DNA of 64,000 nt from an uncultured Acidimicrobiia bacterium (GTDB taxonomy: Bacteria > Acidobacteriota > Terriglobia > Versatilivoradales > Versatilivoraceae). The translations under genes were made by a program, and so were the position numbers. Position 1 is the stretch's first letter. Each line of letters opens with the position of its first letter. Location: positions 1-64,000 of the forward strand of contig CAWBAT010000004.1 of the NCBI GenBank assembly GCA_963786955.1, in the 5' to 3' direction. Under the pieces are notes generated by a model. That model had not been told where the DNA came from. It saw only the letters and a program-made list of their open reading frames with translations, and ran no database searches. Positions 313-29,228 of the stretch are shown piece after piece.

Positions 313-920
313 ACAGTACTCAGTAGGCAAGCCTTTGGCACAGTGCCAGCTGCTCATAGGGGGTCTTAACCGTGGCTTACGAGTTAAGCAGACTCGCAGG
401 GTTGAATTTTGGATACGGACATGGCCGGAATCATGCATTTCACTAATTTTTTCCACTTCATGGAAGCAACCGAGGCGGCCTTTCTTCGGTCGCTGGGGTT
501 TTCGATTTTCCGGGGACCGAAGAAGGGCAAGTGGGATGGCCTAGGGTGCACGCGGATTGTGATTTCAGGCATCCCTTGCGTTTTGAGGATTTAGTGGAAT
601 TCATCTTCTGGTTCGGGAGAAGAAGGAACGAGCTCTTGTTTACACTTTCATTTTTCGTAAGCTCAACGCAATCCCTATCCAAGAAGTAGCCAGAGGCACA
701 ATTATTACAACCTGCGTGACCCATGATCCAGTAACCGGCAAAATCGTGCTGTCCCCATTCCCCTGGACTTTGCCGACAAGATAGAGGTCGCACCCAAAGA
801 CCTACTAATATAAACGCAGTATGTTTTGTGACAATTTCCCCCTCACCTCCAGCCCCTCTCCCTTGGGGAGAGACCTCTGAGGTGATAAGTCAACTATTAT
901 TTGCACAGGAAAATGACAAT

Positions 921-2200
921 TTATTCACAAATGGTCTCCGTGGTTGGAGAGGACAATGCTTCTCCCAGGGGAGACCCACGATGCCGCAAGGTAGCCAGGT
1001 AATATTGTTCGTCGTAAGGTGTATGCTTCCTTCCAACAGCGGAACATGATCCGAAGCCATTTGTAGCCCAGGGCGCGCAGTGCCGCGTGATGAGACTTGC
1101 CGGCCGCGCGGAGGCGGTCATAGCAGGTCCGCGCCCACAGGGACCGGCGAATCGACTGTTCCGAGAATTCCTGGACGCTTTGGCGCAAGAATTTCGGACA
1201 AGCCCACCGCCAATGGACCCGATGGGACTTGCCGCTTTTTTCGGTGACTGGGGCGATGCCCGACAGGAGCTGTACTTCGCAGGCCAAGTGAAAACGGTCC
1301 CGATCCGATCCGAACAAAGTCAGGAGGCGGGGGCCCAAAGCCGGCCCGGCCCCGGGGAAACTGTGGAACACATCGTAGTCGGGATGCTTTTCAAACAGCT
1401 CTTTGATTTGTTGGTTAAATTGGGAGATCGATTCGATCAGGGTCCGAACCTGGCACATCAAGGCCTGCACCATCAGGGCTGAGGCCCGGGTGACGGCAGG
1501 GTCTCGCGTAGGGGTTGAGCCTGGCGAATTTCTTCCAGCAGTGAGTCGATCGACCGGCCCGAGGGGCAACCGTGATGGCGGTAAAATTTCTCCAGAGTGG
1601 TCCTGGAACTCCGGCGCAGCTGATCCAGACTGGACCACTTTTGCAGAAAATCGCAAGCCCGCAAGGTGTCGGGATCTCCCGCCCAGGACAAGGCTTGAGG
1701 GAAATAGCCTTTCAACAGGCTGGTGACCTCGTTGGTCAGAGCGGTCTTCTGGTTGACCAGCTTGCGTCGCGCTTCGCTGAGCAGGCGCAGGCAGCGGGTG
1801 TCGGGGTCGTCGGGAACCCAAACGCGGAGCACTTAAAGATGCTTCTCCAGCAGTTCCAGCAAGAGCGCGGCATCGGTGGGATCATCCTTGGCGCCACTGG
1901 GATAAGAGGGCTTTGCGAAACTTGGCCAAGGTTAGAAGGTTGACTGGATAGAGCCGCAAGAAGTCCACGTCCATCAGGGCATACAACAAGGCGCCCCGCG
2001 ATTGCTCCAGGATGATGGCTACCGGGCGGCCCCCAAATCGCAGTCGCAATTGCTGGATCCAAGCTTGCAGGCTTTCCGGTTTTTGGTCCACCACTAGATA
2101 TTCGACGGTGACCAGAGCCGGCCGCCCGCAGACAAATGACATGTTGTTGGTCGGCCCAATCTAAACCAATGAAGGCAGCAATTTCAGAATCAGAACTCAT
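921..2200 (-). pseudogene. IS110 recombinase/transposase, multiply frameshifted
   Basis: Fragments in ORFs 1736..2257, 1882..2142, 1473..1832, 925..1821 and 921..1121 give FIGLDWAD, ILEQSRG, SFPGAGP, APVTEKSGKS and RALGYKWLRIMFRCWK. They are colinear with the intact copy at 27516-28817. Confidence 0.9.
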
Positions 2201-2242
2201 GATCTCCTCCCGTTCTAGGATAAAGAGAAGGAACCTCGCCAG

Positions 2243-2374
2243 CTGGGGCCCGCGCAACCCTTATAGGGGAGTCCTCTCGGGGCAGCCTCTGAGAATGCGT
2301 TTCAGCTCCAGCCCCCTCCCGTTCGAAAGTCTCTCCCTGATCGTCGCACGATCGGTGGTTTGTTCGTAACGGGA
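2243..2374 (-). ncRNA. Bridge-RNA-like target-binding and donor-binding loops of IS110 copy 1
   Basis: Target loop 2317-2374 has stem TCCCGTT/AACGGGA with guides CCACC and GGGAGAG matching the flanking target. Donor loop 2243-2311 has CTCAGAGG and CTATAAG matching the element's own ends. The RNA's 5' and 3' ends are unknown. Confidence 0.8.
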
Positions 2375-2704
2375 GGATGGCGGGTGACAACCCCTCCATT
2401 TAATCCCAATTCCCTCAACGAGGGGTATGGTTCTGTTGGCCTTCATGGCTTTTGCACAAAATCCACAGCTTCCACAAAGAAAGAAAAAGAGGCAAAAAAG
2501 AAAGAAACGCTACGACGGCTATTCATATACTCATCCTCGGGCAACCCTGTTGTACCGACTATAAGGGTGGCCAAAAGCCGGGTGAGGGGAACGATTCAAG
2601 GGTGACCCAAAGTGTAACTTTACTTCGTGCGTTTGTATTAGCTAAGATTTAATGGTTGGGCAGCGACGTTTCTGTGCCGCTTGCTCCAGATCGCAAGACT
2701 TCTC

Positions 2705-3993
2705 ATGACTTCGCTTTGTCATCCGGATCGTCCATCCATTGAAAACGACCAATTCCTAAAATTGCGCGCACTTCTGGCAGAACTGATCCCCGGTAATCTC
2801 TTCTACTCTCGTAAACTCCAATCGGTGGGGATTGGCCCGGAGATTTCGAGCCTCGATGATTTCCTGGAACGCATGCCCTTCACTTCCAAGAAAGAACTCG
2901 TTGAAGACCAGTCCCGTACTCCACCTTATGGTTCAAACCTGACCTATCCATTAGACAAGTACACGCGATTCAGCCAGACGAGTGCCACGAGTGGGACTCC
3001 CCTGCGGTGGTTGGATACCCGTGAGAGTTGGCAATGGATGCTCGACAATTGGGAACGGATCTACCAGGCCGCCGGGATCGAATCGAAGGACCGGCTCTTT
3101 TTTGCATTTTCTTTCGCTCCTTTCCTGGGATTCTGGACGGCATTTGAAGCGGCCGTGCGCATGGGATGCCTGTGCATTCCGGGAGGAGGGTTGAACGGTG
3201 CCTCACGCTTGAAGCTGATCCTGGATAACCGAGTGACCGTATTGTTGTGCACGCCCACTTATGCACTGCGGTTACAGAAGTCGCAGCCGAACAAAAATTG
3301 GATCTCGCGCGCGGAGAGGTCAGAAAGATCATCGTTGCGGGTGAACCGGGTGGCAGCGTGCCCCGTCTGCGGGCTCGGATCGAAAGGGTGTGGCCAGGCG
3401 CTGCAGTGGTGGACCATCATGGCATGACTGAGACGGGGCCCGTGAGCTACGGGTGCGCAACCCGACCCAATGTGCTGCACATCATCGAATCGGCTTACCT
3501 TGCCGAGGTGTTGGATCCCGAGAGCAGTCGAAGGGTTCTTCCTGGTCAAAAAGGAGAACTCGTCTTGACCAACTTAGGCCGAACTGGTTCTCCACTCTTG
3601 CGCTATCGGACCGGTGACCTGGTGGAAGCCGCACCGGAACAGCCTTGTCAATGTGGGTCCTACGAGCTTGCCTTAGAAGGAGGAATCCTTGGACGAACAG
3701 ATGACATGGTCATTATTCGGGGAGTGAACATCTACCCCTGCGCCATCGATGAGATTCTGCGTCAATTCGAAGAAGTCGGAGAATATCGAGTTGAAGTTAA
3801 CACGACGAATGCCTTGCCTGAATTGAAAATTCAAATTGAGCCAGCGTCTCAGGTCCAGAGTTTGGACATTCTAACCAAACAAATTGAGGCCCTGCTTCAA
3901 AAGACCTTTGCTCTGCGCATCCCTGTTCAGGCTGCACCGAGCGGATCTCTTCCCCGCTTCGAAATGAAAGCGACTCGTTGGGTGAGGTCATAA
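2705..3993 (+). CDS. Phenylacetate-CoA ligase (PaaK)/F390 synthetase-like adenylate-forming enzyme, frameshift near 3270
   Basis: TSATSG P-loop, LLCTPTYAL, VAGEPGG, HHGMTE, LRYRTGD and GRTDDM spread over ORFs 2681..3427 and 3247..3993. Confidence 0.8.
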
Positions 3994-4114
3994 GCCGAAT
4001 TCAACCGGCAGGTATATTTGTCCTCTTGTTTGTAACTTCGTATCCGCTCGCTTATCCGGAGTCCCAAAGGCGAATGCCAAGAACCTGAAGCCGCTTTAAA
4101 GCTAATCCATCTCC

Positions 4115-5382
4115 ATGTCAAATTTTGAAATCTCCTCGCATTTCTTTTTCCAACTTGCTTTCATCCTAACCATCTGCCGCATCGTGGGTTTGGCCGCCCG
4201 GAAAATCAGACGACCGCAAGTGGTTGCTGAAATGATCGCCGGGGCGTTGATGGGGCCTTCTTTTTTCGGGCTTTTTTTCCTGACCTCCAAAGTCGGCTCT
4301 TTCCCAAAGCTTCGATGACGATTCTCTATGCCGTGAGCCAAGTGGGATTGGTTCTTTATATGTTTCTGGTTGGACTGGAATTTCGGTCTGACATTATCCG
4401 CCAGCGCCTCCGGAGTGCTATCTCCGTTTCATTGGCTGGAGTCCTTGCACTACTCCTACTGGGAGGACTCCTGGCGATCTCCCCAATCAATGGTCCGGAA
4501 TTTTTTTCCGCTGGGGTTTCCACTTGGCACAAGATGTTGTTCTTGGGTGCAGCGATGTCAATCACCGCATTTCCGGTACTTGCGCGGATAATTGATGAGA
4601 GTGGCCTTACCGGAACCTCATTGGGAACTCTGACATTGGCCGCCGGGTCAATGGATGATGCATTGGCGTGGTGCCTCCTTGCCATCGTCCTCACCGGTTT
4701 TAGTGGGAATGGGACATTGGCTGTTTCTGCTGTGGGAGGCGGCGTGCTTTATGCAGCCGTGATTCTATTTCCCGGCAAATCTCTCTTAAGGCGACTCGGG
4801 ACATTGGCGGAACGCAGTCAAGGTGTGAGTGGTGGAATGCTCCCCTTCACCTTGATTTTAGTGATGATGGGGGCCTGGTTCACGGATACGATTAGGATTT
4901 ACGCGGTCTTCGGGGCATTCATTCTCGGAGCGGCGATGCCCCGCGGCATCTTCGCACGTGAAGTGCAAGGCTTCTTAGCACCGCTGACCACGAACCTCTT
5001 GTTGCCCTTGTTTTTCGTTTATTCGGGATTAAACACGCGGATTCGATTATTGAATTCGCGCTGGCTTTGGTTGGTCGCACTCCTTGTCTTGTTGGCTTCC
5101 TGCTTCGGAAAAGGTTTCGCTTGCTGGCTGGCTGCACGCTGGAACGGGGAAAGCCCGCGTGATGCCATGGCGATTGGCACCCTCATGAATGCGCGCGGTT
5201 TGATGGAGTTGATTCTCTTGAATATCGGGTTAGAACAAGGAATCATCACTCCGACCCTTTTTACAATGATGGTCATGATGGCAATTGTAACTACCGTGAT
5301 GACATTACCGATTTTCGAGTGGGTTTATCGGCGGCCGCAACAAATTAGAACTGCAGGTGCCGAGGCCACCAGGGGAACATGA
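4115..5382 (+). CDS. Cation:proton antiporter (CPA2 family), frameshift near 4290
   Basis: PQVVAEMIAGALMGPS, LYMFLVGLE, SITAFPVLARI and MNARGLMELI motifs; many TM helices. Confidence 0.85.
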
Positions 5383-5602
5383 AGGAAGATGGGTTGGGTT
5401 TGTTGTGTTCTATAGTCAAGTCGACGCGCTGCACCCTTGCCCAAGTGTAGCGCGGACCCGAAGTCCCCCTTCGACGGGGGTGCCGCTTTACGGCAGGGGA
5501 TGTAAAGGGTCCGCGGCTTTTCACCTTACCGGTTTCAAAAAGCCGCAGAGTTAAAAATCAACTTTGAGCTACCCCCTACATGGGATCATGCAAGACTCGA
5601 CC

Positions 5603-6934
5603 TTATGGTCTTTCCCCTTCTGGAAGTATCAATTCGTTAGCTTTGTGCTGGGCATCTTGCATGGATGTTCCACAATCCCAGGCGGGTGGTGGCTGCTTAC
5701 CACTGGGGTACAACGACTCCATCGGTTGCCAGACTTTGTCCACCGAATCTGTGAATAAATCTCCGATCAACAGGTCGGTGACCGTCCCTTTGAGGTGAGG
5801 GTAATTGCGGACAAATCCGCCAAAACTGAATCCATCATAATACTCACAGACAAGGCGACGCATGCGATCGACGCCTTGGTTAAAGACTTCTCCCCACTTT
5901 CCAAGCTGATGGCCGGAAACATCTCCGCTTTGGAGCCCCTCCACGATGGCATCGGCCGCCATCTCACCCGATTTCAAAGCCAAAAGCACTCCCGAAGAGT
6001 AGAGTGGATCCAGGAATCCGAAGGCGTCGCCGACGGTCACCCAACCATCGCCTGCCACCTGATTTGAGCGGTAGGAATAGTCTTTGGTCGCGAAGTAGCC
6101 GGTCGCTCGCTGTCCGACGGACACGCGTTTCTTCACAGCCGGGCAACTTTCCACTTCTTCCTGATAGGTCTGTTCATGGCTGACCCGACCCGAAAAAAGA
6201 TAGTCAAACGGCGCGACCACCCCGACACTGACACGGTCGTCATGGAGAGGGATGTACCAGAACCAGCCTTGTCGATTAGCGGTCTGGAGAACGAGGGTCG
6301 CGCCTTCGTCTCGCCCGCTATCCCGGTAAGCTCCCTGCCAATAGGTCCAAATGGCTCCTTTGTTGAGCACGGGATCCCAAACTCGAAGCTTAAACTTGTT
6401 CTGCAATAGGCCCGTTTGACCGCTGGCGTCGACAACGACGCGCGCTCGTATTTCCTGGATTGTTCCGTCTGCCTGCTGAATCTTCACGCCCACCGCACGC
6501 TCTTCTTCGAAGAGCACGTCACGGACACGCACCCCCTCATGGGCCTTCACGCCATGTTCTCGAGAGTTATCCAACATCATCAAATCGAACTCGCTGCGCA
6601 CAACCTGCCAGGTCTGCGAAGATTCGTGCGGCTTATTGTCCCAGAAGTAAAATGGGGCCGACTCTCTCCCATTGGCGCTGACGAACTGTACACTGTGCTT
6701 TTTGACGAAGTGGCTTCTCCTCAGTTTTTCGAGCATGCCCAGCCGTTCGAGCACCCAATACGTCTCAGGGATCAGCGATTCGCCAATGTGGAAGCGCGGG
6801 AAGTGTTCACGTTCATAGAGTTCGACGTGATAGCCCTGCTGCGCGATGAGGGCTGAGACGGTGGAACCGGCCGGCCCCCCACCAATAACGACCACGTCTG
6901 GATGCCGAGAGTGGTTTGTGCTGGATGTTCCCAT
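5603..6934 (-). CDS. FAD-dependent oxidoreductase, flavin-dependent halogenase-like
   Basis: GGGPAG, FPRFHIGESL, VVDASG, WFWYIP (WxWxIP) and GDAFGFLDPLYSSGV. Confidence 0.8.
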   Translation of the reverse strand: MGTSSTNHSRHPDVVVIGGGPAGSTVSALIAQQGYHVELYEREHFPRFHIGESLIPETYWVLERLGMLEKLRRSHFVKKHSVQFVSANGRESAPFYFWDNKPHESSQTWQVVRSEFDLMMLDNSREHGVKAHEGVRVRDVLFEEERAVGVKIQQADGTIQEIRARVVVDASGQTGLLQNKFKLRVWDPVLNKGAIWTYWQGAYRDSGRDEGATLVLQTANRQGWFWYIPLHDDRVSVGVVAPFDYLFSGRVSHEQTYQEEVESCPAVKKRVSVGQRATGYFATKDYSYRSNQVAGDGWVTVGDAFGFLDPLYSSGVLLALKSGEMAADAIVEGLQSGDVSGHQLGKWGEVFNQGVDRMRRLVCEYYDGFSFGGFVRNYPHLKGTVTDLLIGDLFTDSVDKVWQPMESLYPSGKQPPPAWDCGTSMQDAQHKANELILPEGERP

Positions 6935-6945
6935 GGGATTCCTTT

Positions 6946-9267
6946 CTATTGAGTCTCCACGAGCACGCAGCTCAATGGAGGAAGTATCATGTCCAACTTT
7001 CCATCATTAACCTGGCGGGTCTCGGATTTCATTTGGTCTAGTGATTCTGAGAGCAGCACTTTTTTCCCCAAGCGATCGTCCACAATCGAAATGGGCTGCT
7101 GTTCTTTTGTCCAGTTGGCAAGGACAACCGCAAACTTCCCTTGCGGGTCACGCCAGGCAGAGTGAAAAACGGCTGGAACATGATTGTCGATTCCCTCCCA
7201 TTGCCACTGGATGGTCTTGATCATTGAGATACTCGCCGGGGACTGCATCCTACCATACACTAGATAGCCTTTAGCTTTTCCACGGCGTAAGGAGATCGCT
7301 CGGCGCAATGTTTCCAGTGAATCCTCGTTGTCGCCGACCTGAGGTTCCCAGGGCGCCCAGTTATTGGTATCCCTGTTCAAAAGCCTGCCGTCACCGGTGA
7401 TTACCCCTCCGGGGATCTCGCCAACAACAAGGTTGTAGGACGTTCGGATCGGCATGTGGTAAGGCTCCGGCGCATATCCAAATCCACCTTGCATCAACAC
7501 AAACTCATGATACAGGAAATGATACAGCGGGATGAAACGCTTCTCATACCCGGAATGCCCAGGAGGAATCACTCGGACATCACAGACCTGGAAATTGGGC
7601 ATGAAATATTCGTTAGGAGGCGTCTCCACCGAGAAAACGATCCTACGCTTCCCCGCGCTTTGCCTCTCAGTTTCTTGGCCCATTTTTTTAAAAGAGTCGA
7701 GGAGCTGCTGCATGCTGCTAGTCATCCAGCCGCCCGGACTGTCTGCATGGCCGTGATCCCGGGCAAAGCACGGAAATGTGGAGCAGCCCACGTTTTGATC
7801 CAGAAACTGGATCCAATCGAGGCCGTCATCGATCAGTCTCTCAACAAAGCGGACCGCAATCTCTTGCGTCTTTGGAACGGAGAGACAACCCGCATAACTC
7901 GGCCGCCAGGTCTGAGCCCAATTCTCTTCCCAGAGTTTCTGGTCGTGTGTTCGGCAAACACTCTTTTCTCCCTCGTGCTCAAGGAAATATTGCTCACCAT
8001 CGTAACCACTCCAGTAATGATGAGTTACCCAACGTGTTCCATTACAGAAACTGCCCACATGCCACCCGCGATTTCTTGCCAGCCCAGTAAATTCCTTGAG
8101 GGATTGGTCTCCCCCTGCCGGTGGAAAGCAGTCCGGGTAAATCCAGGGACCTGGGCGCTCCCAAGACATTACAACGGGAGTTACACCGGAATTAATCCGG
8201 TTCGAAATCTTTTCGAGCAACGGAATAATTTTAGGATAAGGAAGAAACTCAGGATTGGGCTCAGCGGGCCCCACATCCAATTGCCCTTGAATCCGAACGA
8301 TGATGTGGGGCGATGAATCTAAGAGCCAGGATGGGACATCCGTTCGTCGGGACAACGGCTTCTGGGCCCAAGGTTGGGTCAATGACCATTGTCGATACAA
8401 GTCGGCAGCATCGTACCAATCCCCGGCAAAAGTGCGGACCACGACGTCGTAAGGAAGCTGCCTTTCGCCTGTCCTGGGCCAATCACCTACGTGGGAAATA
8501 CCTAATCGTAACCCCCCGGACCGATGATGCACCGGTTTGATCAGCTTAATGCCTCCTGAATGGTCTTGGCAGCTGACGTAGATGCCCGCTCGATCATTGT
8601 AGTACGCCAGGAACTGGGCAAAGGTAAGGCCAGGATAATGGCTGGTGTCACCGTTTTCGGGACGAAACTGCCAGGCGTGGGGACTGTCGGGCTCTAAGTC
8701 CTGCGGATTGGGTGCCCTAAATAGTTGACCCGACGTATATGGCCTCAAAAGAGCTTCGGTACCAGGCTTCCCAGCCAAGTGATATGGAAGGACGATGAAA
8801 GGGAACTGAACGTCCGTGATCAAGAGCCCAGCCTTGTTGTCAATGGAGATCGACCAGTGGCTGGATGGGGCACCGGGCACTACTCGAATCGTGACGATGG
8901 CGTCCAGATCTAACCCGCCCAAGGCGTGAAACTGAATTGCCAGCATCGGCTCGGACTGGCTCGTCGGCTTGATGTCAATTCTTGCCGCCTGGCTGGAGCT
9001 AACCTGATGGAAGTTATGCTTGTCGTCCAGATACTGAACCACGAAAACAGGATCATCGTCGTGCGGAAATATGAATTCCTGATCTGTCGCTTGCGATGCG
9101 CGAAGAGACCTCAACTGGCCAGTTTTTGAGCTGAAAGTGAGCCTGTGATTCCCGTTGTCCAGAAAGATGGTGGACGTATTGGCGTCGGCGTATGATGGCG
9201 CTACGTGTAGGATGAGTATGAAGAATCCCAAAATCAATCCCCTGAAAAACGAGGGAGAGGCGATCAT
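6946..9267 (-). CDS. Large secreted protein, probable glycoside-hydrolase-like TIM barrel (DUF6259-like)
   Basis: Signal-like segment FFRGLILGFFILILHVAPSYA. GDWYDAADLYRQW and WIQFLDQ motifs; Trp/Tyr-rich. Start uncertain (ORF extends to 9399). Confidence 0.55.
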   Translation of the reverse strand: MIASPSFFRGLILGFFILILHVAPSYADANTSTIFLDNGNHRLTFSSKTGQLRSLRASQATDQEFIFPHDDDPVFVVQYLDDKHNFHQVSSSQAARIDIKPTSQSEPMLAIQFHALGGLDLDAIVTIRVVPGAPSSHWSISIDNKAGLLITDVQFPFIVLPYHLAGKPGTEALLRPYTSGQLFRAPNPQDLEPDSPHAWQFRPENGDTSHYPGLTFAQFLAYYNDRAGIYVSCQDHSGGIKLIKPVHHRSGGLRLGISHVGDWPRTGERQLPYDVVVRTFAGDWYDAADLYRQWSLTQPWAQKPLSRRTDVPSWLLDSSPHIIVRIQGQLDVGPAEPNPEFLPYPKIIPLLEKISNRINSGVTPVVMSWERPGPWIYPDCFPPAGGDQSLKEFTGLARNRGWHVGSFCNGTRWVTHHYWSGYDGEQYFLEHEGEKSVCRTHDQKLWEENWAQTWRPSYAGCLSVPKTQEIAVRFVERLIDDGLDWIQFLDQNVGCSTFPCFARDHGHADSPGGWMTSSMQQLLDSFKKMGQETERQSAGKRRIVFSVETPPNEYFMPNFQVCDVRVIPPGHSGYEKRFIPLYHFLYHEFVLMQGGFGYAPEPYHMPIRTSYNLVVGEIPGGVITGDGRLLNRDTNNWAPWEPQVGDNEDSLETLRRAISLRRGKAKGYLVYGRMQSPASISMIKTIQWQWEGIDNHVPAVFHSAWRDPQGKFAVVLANWTKEQQPISIVDDRLGKKVLLSESLDQMKSETRQVNDGKLDMILPPLSCVLVETQ

Positions 9268-9593: not shown

Positions 9594-9706
9594 GCCCTGA
9601 AAGGCTTCAGAGAATAGCCCAGGCAAAAGCGAGGCAGGGGCCTCGCGCGCCGCCCTGGGGGAGTGATGTCAAGGAGTCCCGACCCTGAAAGGGTCGAACA
9701 GAAAGC
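9594..9706. repeat. 113-bp REP-like palindromic unit (GCCCTGAAAGG...TAGCCCAGG family)
   Basis: Near-identical inverted copy at 24288-24400; internal hairpin GACCCTGAAAGGGTC. Confidence 0.8.
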
Positions 9707-14585: not shown

Positions 14586-14594
14586 ACTGCAGAC

Positions 14595-20338: not shown

Positions 20339-20443
20339 AAGTGTCCTCCAGCAACGAAAAGTGTGTGTAGGTGTTTAGTGGCAAACGGGCTTTTCACCCG
20401 CGTTCCTCTTTGGGTCGTCTCTGATGCAACACCCGCAGGTTAG

Positions 20444-21022
20444 TTACCGAACGCCAACCCCGCGAGCACCGGCCCCTGCGCCGTGAAATCCGGCGCCAAC
20501 ACCGCCGCCCAAACCGATTGAATCAATGAACAACGCAGTTGCCCCACCGGTGTTGGGCATCGTGCCCTCGATCAGCTTGTAGCTGTAAACCATGTCATTC
20601 CCTTCAATGACCGGATGACTGATCTTGACCACGGTAAGCGTGTTTTCGGGGTGCCCCGGCTCATAGACCGATAGCGTGGCGTTGGGCGGATCGTTGCCGA
20701 AATTGTCCGGGCCTTCGTTTGCTTTCCATTCATCGAGATAGGCAGGCATCTTGAGATGCCCGGCGATACGCTTTGGGCGATCCGTGAAGTACAACGTCTG
20801 CGGGTTTACGTTCACTAGACGGAAGGTGCTTTGAGCAGAGTCTGTCTTCAGATCTTCCGCAATCTGCACGAACATGTACTGCGGCGCTCCCGAAGAGGGA
20901 GTTGAAGTGTTCGAGGTCGTTGACGTTTTCCCACACGCCGCCAGTGACAACAGTACAGCCGCGCAGAGAAACGCTGGGATTGCTTTGTTCAAGCTCATGT
21001 AGAATTCACGAATTGTTTTCAT
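20444..21022 (-). CDS. Uncharacterised lipoprotein
   Basis: Lipobox LAAC, Ser/Thr linker, LYFTDRP.RIAGH and DPPNATLS; Gly-rich tail. Confidence 0.75.
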   Translation of the reverse strand: MKTIREFYMSLNKAIPAFLCAAVLLSLAACGKTSTTSNTSTPSSGAPQYMFVQIAEDLKTDSAQSTFRLVNVNPQTLYFTDRPKRIAGHLKMPAYLDEWKANEGPDNFGNDPPNATLSVYEPGHPENTLTVVKISHPVIEGNDMVYSYKLIEGTMPNTGGATALFIDSIGLGGGVGAGFHGAGAGARGVGVR

Positions 21023-21106
21023 GATGTACTCTCCTTTCTTTACTCTTTTCATTGGCCATATGAATCCTTGTAATCCGTTAGTCACTGGGGAAATACTGGT
21101 AGGGCG

Positions 21107-21249
21107 TGCACGACGAATTCGCTTTGGATTCGGCCCGTGGGTTTGTCCCGACCAACTCAGCGGCCACCAAAAGCCGTGGGCTTTTACGGATCGAACGCAA
21201 AAGCCGACGACGCATAAAAAGCGAACTCACCGTGGCTTCCAAGGCACGA
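21107..21249. repeat. Palindromic repeat family B, copy 3 (inverted, more diverged)
   Basis: Reverse complement begins TCGTGCCTTGGAAGCCACG, as at 11503-11520. Confidence 0.65.
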
Positions 21250-21290
21250 ATACCTGCATCTGTGGCATTACGAATCCCTTTAAAACATTC

Positions 21291-21319
21291 TTGACATCTG
21301 ATGCGTAATATACTATCAT
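21291..21319 (+). promoter_or_regulatory. Sigma70-type promoter of vapBC
   Basis: TTGACA-17 bp-TATCAT, overlapped by inverted TGATG...CATCA (possible operator). Confidence 0.65.
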
Positions 21320-21329
21320 CAAAGCACTC

Positions 21330-21595
21330 ATGAGAACCACCGTAGATATTGATGACCCCATTCTGAAGGATCTGAAGAAGATCCAAGAAAAGGAAGGTAG
21401 ATCCCTCGGTCGGCTGATTTCTGACCTGCTGGCCCAGGCGCTTGGTGAACGCAAATCGCCAAAAGCTCCAGCCAGAGCCCGCTCGGTGGATTTCAAAAGC
21501 ACATGGGCGCCCGGATTGACATAGCAGATCGCGAGGCAGTATACGCCGCCATGGAGCAAGAACCACGACCAACCGAAGCTACCAAGAAAAGATGA
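21330..21595 (+). CDS. vapB: VapB-type antitoxin, frameshift near 21510
   Basis: MRTTVDIDDPIL...GRSLGRLISDLLAQAL ribbon-helix-helix pattern; lies directly before a PIN gene. Confidence 0.75.
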
Positions 21596-22045
21596 GTTTC
21601 GCCTTTGACGTCAATATCCTGCTTTACGCCTCTGATACCAGCAGTCCATACTTCGAGCGGGCCAAGTCATTTATCGAGACCTGCATCGCTCAAGAGGAAG
21701 TTTTCTACCTGGGATGGCCGACAGTGATGGGCTACTTGCGCATTGCGACGCATCCTGCCGTATTTCGACCGTCCATTATCACCCGATGAGGCTATGGCAA
21801 ACATCGAAACACTTCTCAACCTTCCTCACGCGCGTTTCCTATCCGAGGAAGAAGGGTTTTGGGATGTCTACCGCGCCACGACATCAGAGGTCCCTACCCG
21901 GGGAAATCTGGTACCGGATGCCCATCTGGCTGCCTTGCTTCGCCACCATGGCGTGAAGACGCTGTACACCCATGACCGGGATTTCTTGAAGTTTCCTTTC
22001 CTTGATGTGCGAGATCCCTTAGTCGGGGATCCCCCAAAAATCTAA
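21592..22045 (+). CDS. vapC: VapC PIN-domain toxin, frameshift near 21765
   Basis: FDVNILLYA, YLRIATHP, GNLVPDAHLAAL and LYTHDRDF. Confidence 0.85.
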
Positions 22046-22081
22046 TCATCGATATGGCAAACGGGCTTTCCACCTCGTCTT

Positions 22082-23036
22082 TCAGAACGTGATCGCGCCC
22101 GTAATCTGCACGGAATATCCTTGGACTGTTGCCGTATTCGAGTATTCCTTGAAAAACTTGACTCCGAAGCTGGCCTTCCTGACCGGTAAAATGATGTTTG
22201 CCGCCGCCCCCAGGGCATTGACCTTATAGTGGGCGGGGACTGAGGGATTTACTCCCGGGCCACTGTTGTTGCTCGTTTGCCACTGACCGTAACCGACCAG
22301 ACCCACCTGCAGCAGCGTATGCATGTCCTTTTGCAGCGGAAGAATTTGAGTCAGTGAATAGTCCAGGTCAAAGTTTTGGCCAGGGATGGATATTCGTTCC
22401 TTCCTGCGTCGTATGAAATTCGTACATCTGATAAGCAGAGAATGCGGTCCCTTTGTTTTCGGTCAGATAAAAGGTTTCGCCTGCTGTCATGGCATTGGTC
22501 CAGTTGCCGGTGCCGGTGTTGTTGGTCGCGCCCGGATTGAACCGCCCGGTTGGCGCAAAGAAAGCGTAAGCCGCTTGAATGTCAGCTCGTTTCAAATGCC
22601 AACCTAAAGCGACAGGCTCGTAGAAAGAGTCGGCAAAGCCACCTCCACCGCCGATGGGGCCTAGGTTGGCTAAACTCAGCGCACTGTTCGTAATTGGCAG
22701 GCCAGCTACCAAGGCATAGTTGGCGCCCAAGATCTTCCGCTTGCTCACCCACACAAAGACATTAAGATCAACCAATACGGACACGCTGAGGTCAGCGGGA
22801 AGGGTCTGGCCATTAGAACCTTTCGCCTGATCAAACGAGTAGTCCATAAAGGTATTGAGATAGGTAAGTCCTGGCTCCGGCATGACTCCCGAGTTAGTCG
22901 CGTTAAAGCCCGGCGTATACTTACCGCGCACAGGGGGGACGCTTGAGCAAGCAAGAATCAGCACCAGCCAGCAGGACCAGGATCAGTGCCAAGCCGAATG
23001 GCATAGAGACATTATCAATTTCCGATTTAGCATCAT
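22082..23036 (-). CDS. SphA/MetA-like outer-membrane barrel, frameshifted
   Basis: SGVMPEPG, GGFADS, FAPTGRF, GLVGYGQWQ and terminal Phe across ORFs 22368..22964 and 22082..22324. Confidence 0.7.
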
Positions 23037-23146
23037 GAGAAGATCCTTTCTAATTGCCGAGAGGCTAACGACAGTGAACGATTATCGAAGCCTCGCTCCC
23101 CTCCCCTGGACATGACAGATTTGAAACATTATTGATGGCGTTTGCA

Positions 23147-24208
23147 TTATTTTTGCTCAAGAGTACTCTTGATGGTCGCGAGCGACTTCTGCAGATCCGA
23201 GACAGAGCGGTCTACAGCGACCCTTCGAACAATTGAGCCTTTGAAGCCGGTCAGTCCAGCCTGTTCCGATCCCATCGCCTTGACGAGGAAAAAACCAGAT
23301 TGCTTCGGATCGTCGCTGCCGCGGATACAGAACGTGAGGTCGAGCGCCGTCTCGAAATAATGACTCGAATAGATCTGCTTCTCAGCAATGACATAGGCCG
23401 GTTCCTGAGGAGTGGCTCCGTGCATGGTGAAAACCTGCACGATGCGCAGAGTCGGCTTCAGTCCGAATTTCACATTATCCCAATAAAATCTGCTTTCCAC
23501 GTTGGCTGGCTTTGCATCCGGATAATTGAGGAGGTAGTTGTAAAAACCCGGCAGATTCTGGGGTAATGCCTTGCTATAGCTGAGCATGTATTTGAACTGA
23601 TCGGCAACGTTGACCTGTTGACTCTTATCGTTATAAACCGCACCAAGTATCCGACTGCCTTCTTTCTGGTACACGAGCAGACGCGACAGTGCCAGTTTCT
23701 GGACGTATTGGTTTACCTGATCATCTACGTTCGGAGAAGACCAGTTCACCGACTTACGAAGCTCTTCCATGGTACTGCCAGGCAACTGAACCACGCAGTC
23801 CCCGGGCTTGCAGCTCTTCAACCCCTTGACGTCTTCGCTGCCGAATGCGAAGCCCTGGAGGTCAGAGAGTTGCGGCGGGTCGCTGAATGGCTTCACAGCC
23901 AGGTAGCCGGGAAGTTGGCTCAGACGATTAAAATCGCTCGCGAACTTCACGTAACTTTCAGGGTCTGCATTGATGTAAATCACTCCGAGCACGAAAATCT
24001 CTGCCGGGGTGCGGGAAGTTAGAGCCTGGGCAAAAGGTTGCCCGCTTTGAATCGACGCAATCTGCGCTTGGCTCAACCCAAGCGTCTGGCTGAGATAATT
24101 CTTCAGCTTCAAATTTGCCTGAGAAAAACTGGGGGAAACTCCAACCGTAATTAAAGAAACCAACACAGCAACCAGGACGACTCGTTTGATCATAAGTATT
24201 CTCCTCAA
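23147..24208 (-). CDS. Secreted hypothetical protein
   Basis: Signal peptide; FYWDNVKFGLKPTLR and EKQIYSSHYF; 353-aa open frame. Confidence 0.7.
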   Translation of the reverse strand: MRRILMIKRVVLVAVLVSLITVGVSPSFSQANLKLKNYLSQTLGLSQAQIASIQSGQPFAQALTSRTPAEIFVLGVIYINADPESYVKFASDFNRLSQLPGYLAVKPFSDPPQLSDLQGFAFGSEDVKGLKSCKPGDCVVQLPGSTMEELRKSVNWSSPNVDDQVNQYVQKLALSRLLVYQKEGSRILGAVYNDKSQQVNVADQFKYMLSYSKALPQNLPGFYNYLLNYPDAKPANVESRFYWDNVKFGLKPTLRIVQVFTMHGATPQEPAYVIAEKQIYSSHYFETALDLTFCIRGSDDPKQSGFFLVKAMGSEQAGLTGFKGSIVRRVAVDRSVSDLQKSLATIKSTLEQK

Positions 24209-24287
24209 TGGTGATTGATCTGATTTGGTGGTTAGAGGCCTTGCATCCGGCCTGAAGGGTTGAACTAGCAGGAATGGTCAGACTGAC

Positions 24288-24400
24288 GCTTTCTGTTCGA
24301 CCCTTTCAGGGTCGGGTCTTCTTGACGTTACGTCCCCAGGGCGACGCGCGAGGCTCCTGCCTCGCTATTGCCTGGGCTATTCTCTGAAGCCTTTCAGGGC
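24288..24400. repeat. 113-bp REP-like unit, inverted copy of 9594-9706
   Basis: Direct sequence comparison. Confidence 0.8.
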
Positions 24401-24420
24401 CCAAAAGGAAGGGGACAAGC

Positions 24421-25431
24421 TTAATGCACCTCCCCTGCAACTGCGGGTTTCCCTTCCGTCGAAGATTTTTCAATGAATCTTCGTAGCGCGAGCGTGAGCG
24501 GGATCGCTAGAATTGCTCCTGCCGGGCCGAGCAGGAAACCCCATACCATCAGGGAGATCATAATCTCGAGAAGCGAGACATGCAGCCCCTTGATCATGAG
24601 CATGGGTTTGACCACATAGTCTCCCAGCATCTCTGTCAATATGAGTCCCCCCACCACGAGCAGTGCCCGTTTCCAACCCAACATCAGGAGTGCCATCAGG
24701 CTCGGCGGGACGATGGAGATCAGGAAGCCTAAGTTGGGGATGAAGTGGAGGAAGAAATAGAGAAAACACCAGACGAACGCGAAGTCGACACCGAGCGCCA
24801 TCAGGAGCACCAGGTTGGCCAACGCATTAATGGCACCAGTCTGCGCGGAAATGGCGATGAAGCGCTGAACGTCCCCGCCATAATAGACCAAATTCCGGGC
24901 GAGGGGCCCGGTTTTGGCGTCTTCCGGATCAACCATCTCCACCAGAAAAATGAGTGCCAGCAGAGAGATCAGAAATCGATCAGATAAAATGCTGATCATC
25001 GATGGGAGTATCAGGCGTGCCAACTCGATGATCCGATCATAACTATACAAACTCTTTACGGAGAAAGGTGGGCCGATTGATTACCATGAGCACTGAAGTA
25101 GCCTGCGATTCGGTCATACAGGCTCCTCAAATGCTCCTCATAAATCGGCAACCTCTCCCGCAGTTGCAAGACGGCCTCAATCAAGGGAACGGATACAGCC
25201 AGATAAATGGTGATCACGAAAGACGACGGTCAAAATGATTGCCAAGCTCTTGCGAAGCCCGAACCGGTGCATCAGCCACTTCGGAAAGGGGAGGATAACG
25301 TAGGTCAGCAGTAGCGCGATGAGGACGACCGATAGGGGGTGGGATGCAGCCTGGATTCCCCATGCGACAACCACAAAGTAAGCGCCTGCCTGTAGAAGGC
25401 GCAATGGGGATGAAGTCATGTGTTCAATCAT
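24421..25431 (-). CDS. AI-2E (PerM) family transporter, frameshifted
   Basis: FFLHFIPNLG and WGFLLGPAGAILAIPLT; N-terminal part lies in ORF 25177..25431. Confidence 0.8.
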
Positions 25432-25859
25432 TTTACCCTCCTCTAACCCGGGATTCCGAAGTTGCTTTGGGACCGCTTGGTGGAACGGGCGCTCCGACGC
25501 ACAAGCTCAGTGAACGCGCGGCGGAGAGAGCGTCCACCTAAACCGAGAGTTCATTGGAACAATTTTTCCTCTTCGTACTTTGCTCGTAAATTTAAGTGAA
25601 ATCAGTAAATAGAGAGAAATGACACATCCCAAATTCGAAATTCAGGCTAACCCAGAATTCTCACGACGACCCGCCGCATGAGGTCATGCGGCCTGCAAAG
25701 ATGTAGGCCGGGTTACAGACCTGGCGTTAAAGTTTGGGAATTTGTGCAAGTTCGTAGTCCCGGCTTTAGCCGGTCCGGAACATCACCGCCTGAAGGCGGT
25801 ACTACAAGCTTCTTCGCGGTCGCGTCGAAGACCAGAGTGATCGGGTCGCCAGTCGCTCT

Positions 25860-26290
25860 TCACTGCATCCAGCTGGTTGAGGATCTTCGCCTTCGCCGCG
25901 TTATAATCGCTTTCGCTAATAAGTCCTTGATTGTACATCGACTGCAGCTCCTGGAGCTTCTGTTGCGGGGTTTTCGTTGGCCCTGGGACGCAGCCGCTGC
26001 GGCTTGACTGGCGGCTGCGGCCGATGCCGCCGCAGCCTGCGACGCGGCCGCGGCAGACTGCGGCCGCGGTCTGCCGACTGTGCTGCTGCGCGCGCGACTG
26101 TTGGGCAGCCGCCGACTGCTGCTTCTCCGCCGCGCTCTTTTCGGACTCACTGACCACTACCGCCGTCCTCCGGGCGCACCGGCGCCGGGTTCCTAGGACT
26201 GCCGAGCTCTCAGGCGCGAACACCAGCAGGGCGAGGACGACCAGTACGGACGCTCAGCAAGACGGACTTTCGAAATAGGTTTCCCATCAT
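25860..26290 (-). CDS. Secreted Ala/Gln-rich protein with C-terminal SHOCT domain, frameshifted
   Basis: QKLQELQSMYNQGLISESDYNAAKAKIL; RBS AAGGAGG before the ATG. Confidence 0.7.
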
Positions 26291-26313
26291 GACAATCCTC
26301 CTTGTTTGCAGCT

Positions 26314-26948
26314 TCATGACTTTTTGCGCATGTACTCGAGATCCATAATTTTGACCATTTTGCCACTCAGATCAGGCTGCCACAGTTCCGTGAGGTGATT
26401 CCCGTCCGGGTTGATGCTGAGCCTCATTTCTGATTTTCGTGGGCTTAAGGGTGATCGCATCGTAGACCGTCGCGGTTAACTTCGCCGACTTACCGTCCGG
26501 AGCCATAGCCCCTGTGTACCACTCCATGCCCGTGCTGCCCGAATCCATGTAGCATGCCACGTACTTCTGTTGCGACGTTGTCATACCCCGCGTAGCCGAT
26601 GCCGTTGATGGGCTCGCCCATGACGAATCCGGACAGCATCATCTGGATGTAGCGGTGGCCGAGCACCCAGGTGCCAACCGCAACCTGCATCGACTCGATC
26701 GGAGGCTTGGAAGGGTCGAGCCAGACCCGGACCTTCACGTCGAAATTGCCCACCAAAAACTCGAGCTTCTTCTGTCCCTCGCCCGGGTCCATGGCGTTGT
26801 CCATGGCCTTCACGATCGCTGCGTTTCCTGCGGCCGTCGAGCTCACGGGCGCTGGGGCACCCTCCTTCTTCTTATCTTGTGCCAACAGGGGGCTTGCCAG
26901 GGCGAGAATTACGGCCAGTAGAAGTCCCATACGATAGAAGCGCTTCAT
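26314..26948 (-). CDS. DUF1579-family secreted protein, frameshifted
   Basis: PGEGQKKLEFLVGNFD, WVLGHRY, GYAGYDN and MDSGSTG. Confidence 0.75.
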
Positions 26949-27338
26949 CTTCGAACCTCCTTTTCTCATAGAGTCCATGCAGGGAATTTCCGGTTTCAAC
27001 TCTCTTCTTACACGAAACACTATTCTCCCGGCCCTCCTTCGTCAACCTCAAAAACCAGCGGCCTGAAGGGCCGCCACAATCTAGCCCAGGGCAGAACGCA
27101 GGGGCAAGGCCCCGCAGCGCCGCTCCGGGCTTCGCCCTTCACTCTGCCCTTATAGGTATTCAGAGCACGGTAGTGCGAAGTGAAACGGTTAGCAGTAGTG
27201 GCAGCCTCTCTTTCTTTTTTGCTGCTTTTTTCTTTCTCTGTGGAAGCTGTGAGTTCTGTGGAAAACGGTTTAGGAGCGACAGCAGAAGTCTGGACAGGAG
27301 AACGTACTTGAGTGCAGAGTGGAACACACAACACGCAA

Positions 27339-27480
27339 CGCCTGGCTACGAATAACTTGCCCTCACCATGGCGATGGTTAAGCCCAGAGTTTCGAGCCAG
27401 GCGCTGCACCAGGAGCCCTAACGCATTACTCAGATGCGGTCCCCTGAGGACTCTACTATAAGGATTGCGCCGTTTCCTGG
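27339..27480 (+). ncRNA. Bridge-RNA-like target-binding and donor-binding loops of IS110 copy 2
   Basis: Target loop has stem CGCCTGGCT/AGCCAGGCG with guides TGCCCT and AGCCCAG. Donor loop has CTCAGATG and CTATAAG. Confidence 0.82.
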
Positions 27481-27515
27481 CAAGCGTGTTGAAATTCTGC
27501 TGGGAGGTGATTCTC

Positions 27516-28817
27516 ATGACAACATCCTCTGTTCCGATGGAAAGCCCGATCGTGGCCTATGTCGGTTTAGATTGGGCCGATCAACAACATGTCCTCTGTT
27601 GGCGAGCAGCCGATTCCACTCAGGTGCAGACGGCGGTAGTCCGGCAACGCCCCGAGGAACTCCATGCCTGGGTGGCCGAGCTGCGGCAGCGTTTCCCTGA
27701 AGGCCTGGTAGCCATCGCCTTGGAGCAAAGCCGGGGGCCCGTGATCGCGGCCCTGATGCACTATGACTTTCTGCGCCTTTACCCGATTAATCCCAAGTCG
27801 CTGGCCCGCTACCGAGAAACGTTTTCCAGTAGTGGCGCCAAGGATGATCCCAGCGATGCTGCCCTGCTGCTGGATCTGCTGGTCAAACACCGGGAGCGAT
27901 TCTCGCCCTGGGTACCCGACGATGCTTTGAGCCGACAGCTGGCCTTGCGGGTCGAGCATCGCCGCCACCTGGTGGATCTCCAAACGGTGCTGACCCACCA
28001 ACTGAGCAGTTACTTGAAGCTCTATTTCCCTCAAGCCCTCGACTGGAGCGGCGCTCTCGACACTCCTCAGGCCTGCGATTTCCTCCAGCGCTGGCCCACT
28101 CTCGAAGCCGTGCAGAAGGCCCAGCCTGCTCAACTGGAGAAGTTCTACCACCAGCATCATAACCGCCGCCCGCAGTTGATTCGACAGCGGATCGAGCAGA
28201 TTCAACAGGCCAGGCCCTTGACTCAGGACACGGCCTTGGTGGAAGCCTCCTACCGGATGGTCCTGGCCCTAGTCGCCCAACTGCAGCCCTTAATCGCCAC
28301 CCTGCAACAATGGGAAGTGCAGATCGGCCAGCTGTTTGCCCAGCACCCTGATGCCTTGATCTTCACCAGTTTCCCGGGGGCCGGAGCGGTTTTTGCTCCC
28401 CGTCTGCAGGCGGTTTTCGGTTCGCGCCGAGACCGCTTCGGCGCTGCCCAAGACCTGTTGCAGTTCTCGGGGCTGGCCCCGGTCACCCAACGCAGCGGCA
28501 AATCTCGTCAGGTGCATCGCCGCTGGGCGCGTCCGAAATTCCTGCACCAGAGCCTGGTGGAATTTGCTGCCCTGTCGATTCCTCACTGCGGCTGGGCCCG
28601 AGCCCTCTACCACCAGTTGCGCGCCCGGGGCCACCGTCACTGGGCCGCTATTCGAGTGATTGCTTACAAATGGACACGCATCCTGTTTCGTTGTTGGAAA
28701 GAGCGGGTTCCTTATGATGAATCCAAGTATCTTCAAGCCTTGCAGCGGCGCAATCCTCAACTGTGGGTGGCCAGCCAGCAGCCGCCTCCGCCGCGATCCA
28801 AGAAAAAGGCGGCCTGA
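27516..28817 (+). CDS. IS110 DEDD recombinase/transposase
   Basis: VGLDWAD, ALEQSRG and AKDDPSDA give DEDD. SFPGAG and APVTQRSGKS (catalytic Ser region). RBS GGAGGT. Confidence 0.95.
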   Translation: MTTSSVPMESPIVAYVGLDWADQQHVLCWRAADSTQVQTAVVRQRPEELHAWVAELRQRFPEGLVAIALEQSRGPVIAALMHYDFLRLYPINPKSLARYRETFSSSGAKDDPSDAALLLDLLVKHRERFSPWVPDDALSRQLALRVEHRRHLVDLQTVLTHQLSSYLKLYFPQALDWSGALDTPQACDFLQRWPTLEAVQKAQPAQLEKFYHQHHNRRPQLIRQRIEQIQQARPLTQDTALVEASYRMVLALVAQLQPLIATLQQWEVQIGQLFAQHPDALIFTSFPGAGAVFAPRLQAVFGSRRDRFGAAQDLLQFSGLAPVTQRSGKSRQVHRRWARPKFLHQSLVEFAALSIPHCGWARALYHQLRARGHRHWAAIRVIAYKWTRILFRCWKERVPYDESKYLQALQRRNPQLWVASQQPPPPRSKKKAA

Positions 28818-29228
28818 AGGAAATTGGCTGTGAAAAAAATGTACCGGCTTTGAGGATAAATTTACAAGTAACACTTGACAGACCACCTCAGATGTCTGGG
28901 CTATTTTATCTTGCCCTTTCAGGGCAACGGAAATGTCCAATTTTCTGTCCGGGGCCACCGGATTTGAGCTTTTACGAGCTCTCCGAGACGAAGTCTATGG
29001 AGCTCATCGCGGCCCTGAGGAGCTCAGGTGTAGCCTAGCTTCGGGGTCAAGAAATTACATGACTGTGACATTTACAAACCACTGACGGTTATGATGGAGA
29101 AACTATACCTGGAAGGAGGTGAACTTGAGCGTGTTGGGTATCTACTTTAACACCTTTTGCGTTTCAACCGGGACGAACAAGACGTAGTTAAATGTCAACG
29201 GTCCTAATCCTTAAGGAGGATATTTTAA

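Follow-up and report, generated by a model that had tools for sequence, protein, structure and literature searches.

Can one RNA scaffold be aimed at different targets within a single genome? This question is raised by two insertion sequences of the IS110 family that lie in the first 64,000 nucleotides (nt) of contig CAWBAT010000004.1 (assembly GCA_963786955.1, an uncultured Acidimicrobiia bacterium), the stretch that we refer to as the window. An earlier note on this DNA had proposed that the two elements, copy 1 (type 1) and copy 2 (type 2), carry bridge RNAs with the same scaffold and different guides, and the strings and coordinates that it quoted were all present where it placed them. We found that each copy contains, upstream of its recombinase gene and on the same strand, a predicted bridge RNA gene of about 155 nt with two stem-bounded internal loops. 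Both loci are very probably IS110-group insertion sequences that work like IS621, the element for which the bridge RNA was described by Durrant et al. 2024 (PMC11208160) and the handshake guides by Hiraizumi et al. 2024 (PMC11208158). On this reading one scaffold bears two guide sets, type 2 apparently aimed at TTGCC-CT-GGGCT(A) and type 1 at CCACC-CT-CTCCC. Coordinates are collected in Table 1.

The left ends of both copies share a fold kept by compensatory changes

Relatives of the elements were collected from 25 loci in species-representative genomes (45–85% protein identity), together with copies from the window's own genome and family; the depositor labels of these relatives include Acidobacteriota, Terriglobia, Acidimicrobiia, Nitrospiraceae, Verrucomicrobiae, and others. 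For 23 sequences, the stretch preceding the recombinase gene was aligned with MAFFT, which is blind to structure. On this alignment, RNAalifold returned 27 base pairs, 20 of them with a compensatory change. A five-helix structure was also written by hand. Its first half has an outer stem, with CGAA/UUCG as the closing pairs, and an inner hairpin; its second half has an outer stem, a closing stem CGCA/UGCG, and another inner hairpin. In the MAFFT alignment, 78.8% of the cells of this structure were paired, compared with 66.4 ± 0.9% after shuffling, and 24 of the 33 pairs had changed on both sides. The observed values were attained in none of 500 shuffles for four of five measures, and sliding the partner by 1–3 columns left at most 51.4% paired.

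A model-fitted alignment of 29 sequences, which leans towards the structure, gave 84.1% paired cells versus 69.8% in shuffled data, with 25/33 pairs changed on both sides and again 0/500 shuffles reaching these values. The first outer helix was the clearest example, with 97% of its cells paired and 11 of its 13 pairs changed on both sides. Each of the 29 strong matches to the model lay upstream of a recombinase gene, and folding of single sequences recovered the first stem-loop in both copies. The compensatory stem changes read from the two copies in the earlier note were thus borne out by the covariation check among 23 and 29 relatives. One detail had to be corrected: the conserved "linkers" TACGAA/TTTCGA and AACGCA/TTGCG are partners in base pairing, which closes the two internal loops.

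Two bridge-RNA matches 1.3 kb apart (L049:43-200 and 1501-1661) were observed in a genome of the same genus (G003, C12). The second begins a few bases past the recombinase stop of the first element and has no recombinase gene downstream, an orphan or tandem arrangement.

Both elements interrupt their targets at a single CT

Both copies begin with CT|TATAG(G/T) and end with CACCTCAGA(T/G)GT|CT. The same CT core is present at both junctions and once in the empty site, and terminal inverted repeats are absent. The ends of copy 2 were set by alignment with copy 1 and with the relatives, and by paralogous empty sites, which were sought by querying the whole genome with each 100-nt flank, left and right, on its own. 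The flanks of copy 2 were adjacent at 11 places, with an overlap of exactly CT in 8 of them, and those of copy 1 at 3 places, with an overlap of exactly CT in one. These paralogous unoccupied target repeats show that insertion was a simple interruption at a single CT, and the boundaries at 871 and 28897 that had been assigned to the two elements proved exact.

A joint that skips from 27148 to 28896 (1747 nt) was seen in two contigs of one DNA run and in one contig of one RNA-library run. Because its sides are only 29–32 nt long and lie within the repeat, this joint possibly comes from paralogous empty repeats, not from excision.

The first loop matches the target and the second loop matches the element ends

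In copy 2, the left target guide TTGCC-CT corresponds to the left flank cTGCC-CT (...TCTGCC|CT) and the right target guide AGCCCAG to the right flank CT-GGGCT (CT|GGGCTATTTT). In copy 1, the left target guide CCACC corresponds to CCACC-CT (GGCCACC|CT) and the right target guide GGGAGAG to CT-CTCCC (CT|CTCCCCAAGG). Each of the three type-1 copies in the genome has a right flank CT|CTCCC and a left flank (C/T)CA(C/T)C. On the left, the 5' target guide reads as the target's top strand does and would therefore pair with the bottom strand; on the right, core and target together appear in the 3' guide as their reverse complement. The match of CCACC to its flank, as given in the earlier note, stands; as a guide, it is one base shorter than the CCACCC of two sister copies, one C being absent from copy 1 as assembled.

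To evaluate this correspondence among relatives, 41 model matches were reduced to 32 rows by removing 7 duplicate genomic places and 2 short reverse-strand partial matches. Both flanks and a CT core were available for 23 of the 32 rows, which fell into 19 exact guide classes; 14 classes were independent, differing by more than 3 of 18 guide letters. The longest exact match between guide and own flank in these 14 classes averaged 5.4 nt on the left and 6.1 nt on the right, compared with 3.1 nt on either side for the 182 non-self guide–flank pairings. The summed score was 161, and the maximum in 20,000 permutations was 134. The fit of each guide to its own target, first noticed in the two window copies, therefore holds across the relatives.

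The second loop reads the element's own ends, a correspondence that the earlier note had missed. The left donor guide, CTCAGATG in copy 2 and CTCAGAGG in copy 1, recurs in each case at the end of its own right end (RE), which in copy 2 reads CTCAGATG(T)CT. Reverse-complemented, the right donor guide of both copies (CTATAAG) gives CTTATAG, the sequence with which the left end (LE) starts. Of the 32 rows, 27 had the left donor guide's first 8 nt at the RE end, and 26 had the 7-nt right donor guide in reverse complement at the LE start; several of the misses in both counts were contigs ending early. The variants of the left donor guide (CTCAGATG, CTCAGAGG, CTCAGTTG, and CTCAGACA) each recur at their own RE end, and ATATAAG accompanies the LE start CTTATAT as CTATAAG accompanies CTTATAG. 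This pairing of variant guides with variant ends identifies the second loop as the donor-binding loop. Together with the shared CT core, the strand sense of the guides follows the rule of IS621, which agrees with the earlier assignment to an IS621-type system with target and donor loops.

The handshake rule of IS621 (PMC11208158) was compared with 23 related rows. In 23/23 of them, the base that follows the right target guide on its 3' side is complementary to position 7 of the donor, and in 0/23 to position 7 of the target. For the base following the right donor guide, the counts are 22/23 for position 7 of the target and 0/23 for that of the donor.

Two further observations concern the donor side and the core. 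The T before the core is missing from the left donor guide of both window copies (CTCAGATG-C vs CTCAGATGTC), so donor position 7 would be left unpaired by its own loop; many relatives have a contiguous CTCAGATGTC, and the skipped T is a difference from IS621. Possible natural core variants were seen at L017 (1021-1181, with its RE), L028, and L063. In L017, CC is the core expected from the right target guide and from the right donor guide, and it also stands at the RE junction. In L028 and in an element of Burkholderia, the right donor guide is CTATAAT and TT precedes the LE.

The targets lie in palindromic repeats

The type-2 target is located in the 3' arm of a palindrome resembling repetitive extragenic palindromic (REP) sequences, ACCCAGGGC...GCCCTGGGCTA, and copy 2 breaks one member of this family. 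The repeat is followed by GGCCCTTCAGGCC-type hairpins, and about 25 further copies occur genome-wide, most of them unoccupied. The string TGCCCTGGGCT occurs 27 times in the genome, versus 3.1 expected, mostly inside this family. The type-1 targets are located at the foot of CCCTCTCCC...GGGAGAGGG hairpins, and CCCTCTCCC was counted 159 times versus 52 expected.

Copy 2 retains an open recombinase frame and copy 1 does not

The 433-aa frame of copy 2, which had been described as intact, is open and carries both expected domains: Pfam PF01548 (DEDD_Tnp_IS110; E = 5.3e-24, residues 16–172) and PF02371 (Transposase_20; E = 8.8e-10), both above the cut-off. When copy 2 was compared with 12 relatives, D19, D111, D114, and S327-G328 were invariant and E70 was nearly so. 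S327-G328 aligned with the ESGSS stretch of IS621, for which S241-G242 is named in PMC11208158. Copy 2 looks intact and is probably competent.

The DNA of copy 1 is 59.1% identical to that of copy 2 over 1690 aligned positions (65.4% in the RNA region). Its recombinase aligns with that of copy 2 in four pieces (50–64% identity) that lie in different frames, with a TAA inside one piece; judging from these breaks, copy 1 as assembled is not competent. The three type-1 copies differ by private single-base insertions or deletions (indels), of which copy 1 has six, the copy on C3 two, and that near C4:200k one. Clustered substitutions also separate copy 1 from its sisters (alignment columns 732-739 and 1620-1623), and each sister carries a private frame-breaking change of its own, one of them having an in-frame TAG.

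Further IS110-type remains were observed in the genome. One is a type-2 fragment of 260 nt from the RE, with 99.6% identity to copy 2, that still has a cognate repeat's arms on either side (...CTTGCC, 14 nt, remnant, CT|GGGCTAC); it probably arose by internal deletion. A third IS110-type copy (C8:261342-262356, reverse strand) shows 55% protein identity over residues 7–313; its left end has a donor-binding loop only, and C-rich repeat sequence stands where the target loop would be.

Proposed mechanism and alternative explanations

A TTGACN -35 box was found in 24 of 25 RE ends, with a spacing to the LE -10 of 17 nt (22 elements) or 18 nt (2 elements), and the LE start was TATAGG, TATAGT, or TATATG in the 23 elements with both ends. 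With TTGACN in the RE and TATAGN in the LE, a sigma-70-type promoter is predicted only across the RE–LE junction. Excision of the element as a circle would join the two halves, and transcription from the junction would run through a leader and the two-loop bridge RNA into the recombinase gene. From the LE start to the first loop this leader measures 107–184 nt among the elements, and it usually starts with a hairpin. The second loop would act on the element's RE–LE junction as the first loop acts on the target, and the DEDD/Ser recombinase would swap strands at the common CT core. The anatomy, the covariation, the correspondence of the guides to flanks and ends, and the exact boundaries are shown by the present data; that the RNA is made, binds the recombinase, and directs recombination is inferred by close analogy with IS621.

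Several results weigh against this reading. With the NCBIfam profile NF033542 ("IS110 family RNA-guided transposase"), copy 2 scored 137.3 bits, below the cut-off of 140; the alignment spans profile positions 1–342 of 343, so this is a near miss of the threshold with no feature missing. Kinship with characterized proteins is weak, as only residues 254–405 (the Tnp domain) align with IS621 (8wt6, E = 5.3e-08) and ISCro4 (9t56, E = 5e-07). Folding of single sequences was only weakly better than that of shuffles (z = -1.58 and -2.45 for copies 1 and 2, respectively). No Rfam family reached its gathering score anywhere in the window, leaving no family for comparison. In the guide code, the exact match of the left guide was 3 nt in 5 of the 14 classes and 1 nt in one, usually with one internal mismatch. 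Agreement at the handshake positions is consistent with the rule but, given related rows and almost no variation there, is not evidence of covariation. The predicted leader of about 180 nt from the junction promoter to the first loop differs from the RNA of IS621, which starts at the promoter. Finally, two RNA-library (metatranscriptome) and two DNA runs, all in the form of contigs, were compared with the window, and RNA-library contigs cover most of copy 2, including 27145-27630. Being 90–97% alike, these contigs come from relatives. As contigs they are silent on transcription, strand, and ends and so speak neither for nor against expression; one of them carries 26 nt of foreign flank, which may reflect read-through or DNA carry-over.

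Could the conserved left-end region instead act as DNA only, as recombinase sites or a 5' untranslated region, with flank matches that are due to chance or are copied leftovers of the target? The matches in the two window copies are only 5–7 nt long, the z values of single-sequence folding are modest, and the RNA-library contigs do not reveal an RNA. Such a role would leave unexplained why five helices are kept by compensatory changes, why the guides change with the target across 14 independent classes, and why the second loop reads the core and both element ends. Moreover, the half-guides are of opposite sense, as pairing with opposite strands needs and as a copied target would not give, and we attach almost no credence to this explanation. 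A different possibility is that the target is chosen mainly through the hairpin-forming REP-like repeat, by its structure or by protein contacts, with RNA pairing as one layer only; recognition of repeats is proposed for ISPpu10 in a preprint (10.64898/2026.03.19.712850). Both target types do lie in palindromic repeats, nearly all copies of TGCCCTGGGCT stand at the 3' arm of one family, the type-1 targets are tied to CCCTCTCCC...GGGAGAGGG hairpins, and several left guides tolerate a mismatch. On the other hand, relatives with other guides sit in unrelated sequences, so that pairing alone predicts their sites, and we consider selection through the repeat improbable. The count of about 25 unoccupied cognate repeats against one full and one remnant type-2 copy is neutral as to a structural requirement.

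Guidance by the bridge RNA remains our preferred reading for both copies; the state of copy 1 is a separate matter. The source assembly comprises 9 contigs for 5.65 Mb, and an AMP-binding (acyl-CoA ligase-like) gene next to copy 1 (2681-3993, forward strand) is also split into two overlapping frames, as a pseudogene or through an assembly indel. Part of the damage to copy 1 may therefore be assembly error. Taken to its full extent, this would mean that copy 1 and its two sisters are intact and active and that their frameshifts are not decay, which fits the finding that all indels distinguishing the three copies are private single-base events. The substitution clusters that set copy 1 apart from its sisters and the in-frame TAG in one sister argue for decay, and wholesale assembly error seems somewhat unlikely to us.

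Loose Rfam thresholds applied to 27100-27560 gave chance-level matches only. The best, SNORD103 over the target loop (27341-27401, forward strand; 23.3 bits against a gathering score of 45, E = 0.02), is probably itself due to chance. IS110 systems and C/D-box guide ribonucleoproteins are argued in a preprint to be evolutionarily linked (10.1101/2024.06.21.599552).

A leader module is shared with an unrelated transposon

The leader of both copies contains a module of about 70 nt, made up of a TAG/TAC run, a perfect homopyrimidine mirror repeat, and 3–4 direct repeats of 9–10 nt ending in CCACA. Its consensus in the subclade consists of the mirror TTTCTTTCTTTTTT-GCNNC-TTTTTTCTTTCTTT and the repeats TGTGGAAGC / TGTGGATTC / TGTGGAAAA. 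Within this subclade (the window copies and loci L012, L014, L015, L016, L020, L030, L036, and L052), the module is near-invariant, whereas the surrounding leader is divergent. Copy 2 has two private changes in the mirror arms, and these are mutually symmetric.

The module was also found about 85 nt inside the end of an unrelated repeat with a fragment of a DDE-type transposase (C6:975113-975902, with further copies on C3, C8, and C4). Its orientation to the terminus is the same in the IS110 elements and in this repeat, and in both it lies about 50–90 nt inside one terminus. The version in the unrelated repeat has four direct repeats (TGATCCACA, TTTTCACA, TTTTCCACA, and TCATTCACA). The 209-aa open reading frame of this repeat looks DDE/rve-like, and a Pfam search with it returned no family at E ≤ 0.001. 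Triple CACA-ending repeats with a spacing of 9–10 nt occur 10 times in the genome, 8 of them within six module copies, compared with 0–1 in five shuffled genomes. The mirror-repeat pattern was present in 3 of 401 genomes sampled from the phylum, the window's own genome included.

One of the module repeats is identical to TTTTCCACA, which stands twice in the dnaA-dnaN spacer and is followed there, after 16 nt, by TACTATTACTAA. The module resembles an array of DnaA boxes joined to a tract prone to unwinding. It is conceivable, though doubtful in our judgment, that it is a portable cassette that binds DnaA and resembles an origin. On its own, TTTTCCACA is not uncommon (74 in the genome), which counts against this reading. 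DnaA sites in transposon ends have a precedent in Tn5 (PMC3347997). The basal unwinding system, as described in PMC8287927, comprises one or more DnaA boxes, a spacer of at most about 16 nt, and at least three NAN trinucleotides. A canonical origin unwinding module was rejected for the leader, in which a homopurine/homopyrimidine tract of about 34–40 nt separates the box-like repeats from the TAG/TAC run. The T-rich block was likewise rejected as an intrinsic terminator, having no conserved hairpin ahead of it. If the cassette were real, it might recruit the host initiator, melt the donor end or mark it, tie the timing of transposition to replication, or let the excised circle replicate. Among the titles and abstract openings returned by a full-text literature search, no paper ties such a module to IS110 or bridge-RNA elements. 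The module common to the IS110 elements and an unrelated transposon is the part of this locus that could matter more.

Comparison with known IS110-group systems

In IS621 of Escherichia coli, as here, the RNA is located in a long LE upstream of a DEDD + Ser recombinase, the target loop comes first and the donor loop second, and the CT core takes part in all four pairings. For IS621, the left guide is described as having top-strand sense and the right guide as antisense, with the core included (PMC11208160). In both systems the left guides are complementary to the bottom strand and the right guides to the top strand, the joined RE and LE restore a promoter sequence, and the target lies in a REP-type repeat. 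The bases that follow the right guides on the 3' side are consistent here with the handshake bases of IS621. The recombinase is longer here (433 aa vs 326–328 aa in IS621), and a leader of 107–184 nt precedes the first loop, whereas the 177-nt RNA of IS621 starts at the promoter. The present clade is distant from IS621 yet keeps the same strand and core rules, and its handshake positions are consistent with the published rule, which widens the range over which such rules can be trusted.

The scaffold extends beyond the relatives described above. Covariance model R1 matched the LE of an element of Burkholderia sp. YI23 (89.8 bits), of ISEsa2 from a Citrobacter plasmid (52.9 bits), and of a Leptolyngbya element (27.1 bits), each time directly upstream of a recombinase gene. 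The annotated IS110 relatives on plasmids, including ISEsa2, share 41–48% protein identity with copy 2; they have other guides and apparently another core (right donor guide CTATAAT or CTATATT), and they lack the pyrimidine/CCACA leader module. The suggestion in the earlier note that both the members and the scaffold may not be known therefore holds for the members only, since the model matches the left end of ISEsa2. By sequence, the scaffold is not new, and the members may be new within the known bridge-RNA class.

ISPpu9 and ISPpu10 of Pseudomonas putida resemble the present elements in that IS110-family elements insert into repetitive extragenic palindromic sequences, according to PMC12288879 and 10.64898/2026.03.19.712850; they belong to another host and another sequence family and are likened by description only. 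In the IS1111 group, as here, a DEDD recombinase is guided by an element-encoded RNA with target and donor guides, and that group is described as having its RNA in a long RE and 7–17 bp subterminal inverted repeats (PMC11208160). Membership of the IS1111 group was rejected for the window copies, as the RE measures only 78 nt and the RNA lies in the 365-nt LE. RNA-guided elements of the IS1111 group are reportedly also the subject of a seekRNA study.

Bridge RNAs have been predicted for 85.7% of the IS110-group elements in ISfinder, with covariation over 5,511 target pairs (PMC11208160), and 181,180 IS110-adjacent intergenic sequences have been clustered (10.64898/2026.10.21.760802). With guide/target covariation over thousands of IS110 elements and large bridge RNA catalogues already in print, the present case opens no new question. 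It provides a clean example of natural bridge-RNA reprogramming in the genome of one sediment or soil bacterium, with one scaffold and two guide sets, each in its cognate repeat. Copy 2 adds an apparently intact, well-delimited orthologue with a readable guide code of 5+2+5 to 9+2+6 nt.

Coordinates and neighboring features

Table 1. Positions of the features of copies 1 and 2 in the window and of related sequences elsewhere in the genome. The left and right ends are abbreviated LE and RE.
Feature	Position	Strand	Remarks
Copy 2, whole IS110-family element with CT cores at both junctions	27149-28897	+	1747 nt between cores
Copy 2 CT cores	27149-50 and 28896-97	+	
Copy 2 LE	27151-27515	+	365 nt
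Copy 2 LE first bases TATAGG	27151-27156	+	-10 half of predicted junction promoter
Copy 2 leader module	27190-27265	+	TAG-rich run; 34-nt homopyrimidine mirror repeat 27206-27239; repeats TGTGGAAGC / TGTGAGTTC / TGTGGAAAA (9 nt each)
Copy 2 predicted bridge RNA gene	27333-27492	+	covariance model, 157.2 bits; covariation-supported structure
Copy 2 target-binding loop	27339-27403	+	outer stem CGCCTGGCT/AGCCAGGCG, 27339-27352 / 27390-27403
Copy 2 left target guide TTGCCCT	27357-27363	+	
Copy 2 target-loop inner hairpin ACCAT-GGCG-ATGGT	27365-27378	+	
Copy 2 right target guide AGCCCAG	27381-27387	+	then handshake position AG 27388-27389
Copy 2 donor-binding loop	27409-27480	+	outer stem 27409-27414 / 27475-27480; closing stem CGCA/TGCG
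Copy 2 left donor guide CTCAGATGC	27429-27437	+	
Copy 2 donor-loop inner hairpin	27438-27452	+	
Copy 2 right donor guide CTATAAG	27456-27462	+	then handshake position GA 27463-27464
Copy 2 recombinase gene	27516-28817	+	open, 433 aa; DEDD RuvC-like and Tnp domains
Copy 2 RE	28818-28895	+	78 nt
Copy 2 RE end	28875-28897	+	-35 box TTGACA 28875-28880, left donor sequence, core CT 28896-28897
REP-like palindromic repeat broken by copy 2, left arm and spacer	27069-27148	+	right arm from 28898 (to 28940)
Copy 1, whole element (type 1) with both CT cores	2565-871	-	recombinase frame broken
Copy 1 leader module	2507-2450	-	mirror repeat 2507-2476, repeats 2475-2450
Copy 1 predicted bridge RNA gene	2382-2231	-	covariance model, 103.4 bits
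Copy 1 target-loop outer stem CCTCCCGTT/AACGGGAGG	2376-2315	-	
Copy 1 left target guide CCACC	2358-2354	-	
Copy 1 inner hairpin GATCGT-GCG-ACGATC	2353-2339	-	
Copy 1 right target guide GGGAGAG	2337-2331	-	
Copy 1 left donor guide CTCAGAGGCT	2293-2284	-	
Copy 1 right donor guide CTATAAG	2266-2260	-	
Copy 1 RE end	893-871	-	-35 TTGACT 893-888, CTCAGAGGT, core CT 872-871
Type-1 sister	C4:199649-201344		site CCATC-CT-CTCCC; left guide CCACCC
Type-1 sister	C3:348527-350219		site TCACC-CT-CTCCC; left guide CCACCC
Type-2 RE remnant, 260 nt	C4:214605-214864	+	99.6% identical to copy 2; then CT-GGGCTAC
Leader module elsewhere in the genome	C3:362351-362413, C6:975754-975816		

Outward open frames of 165 and 81 aa run through both left ends (27020-27517 on the reverse strand and 2360-2605 on the forward strand, respectively). 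Both frames are KKEKE-rich only because both translate the conserved homopurine strand, and they are not likely to be genes. Next to copy 2, a DUF1579 protein (26490-27020, reverse strand) matches only the first half of its profile, which points to a pseudogene or to a single-base indel in the assembly.

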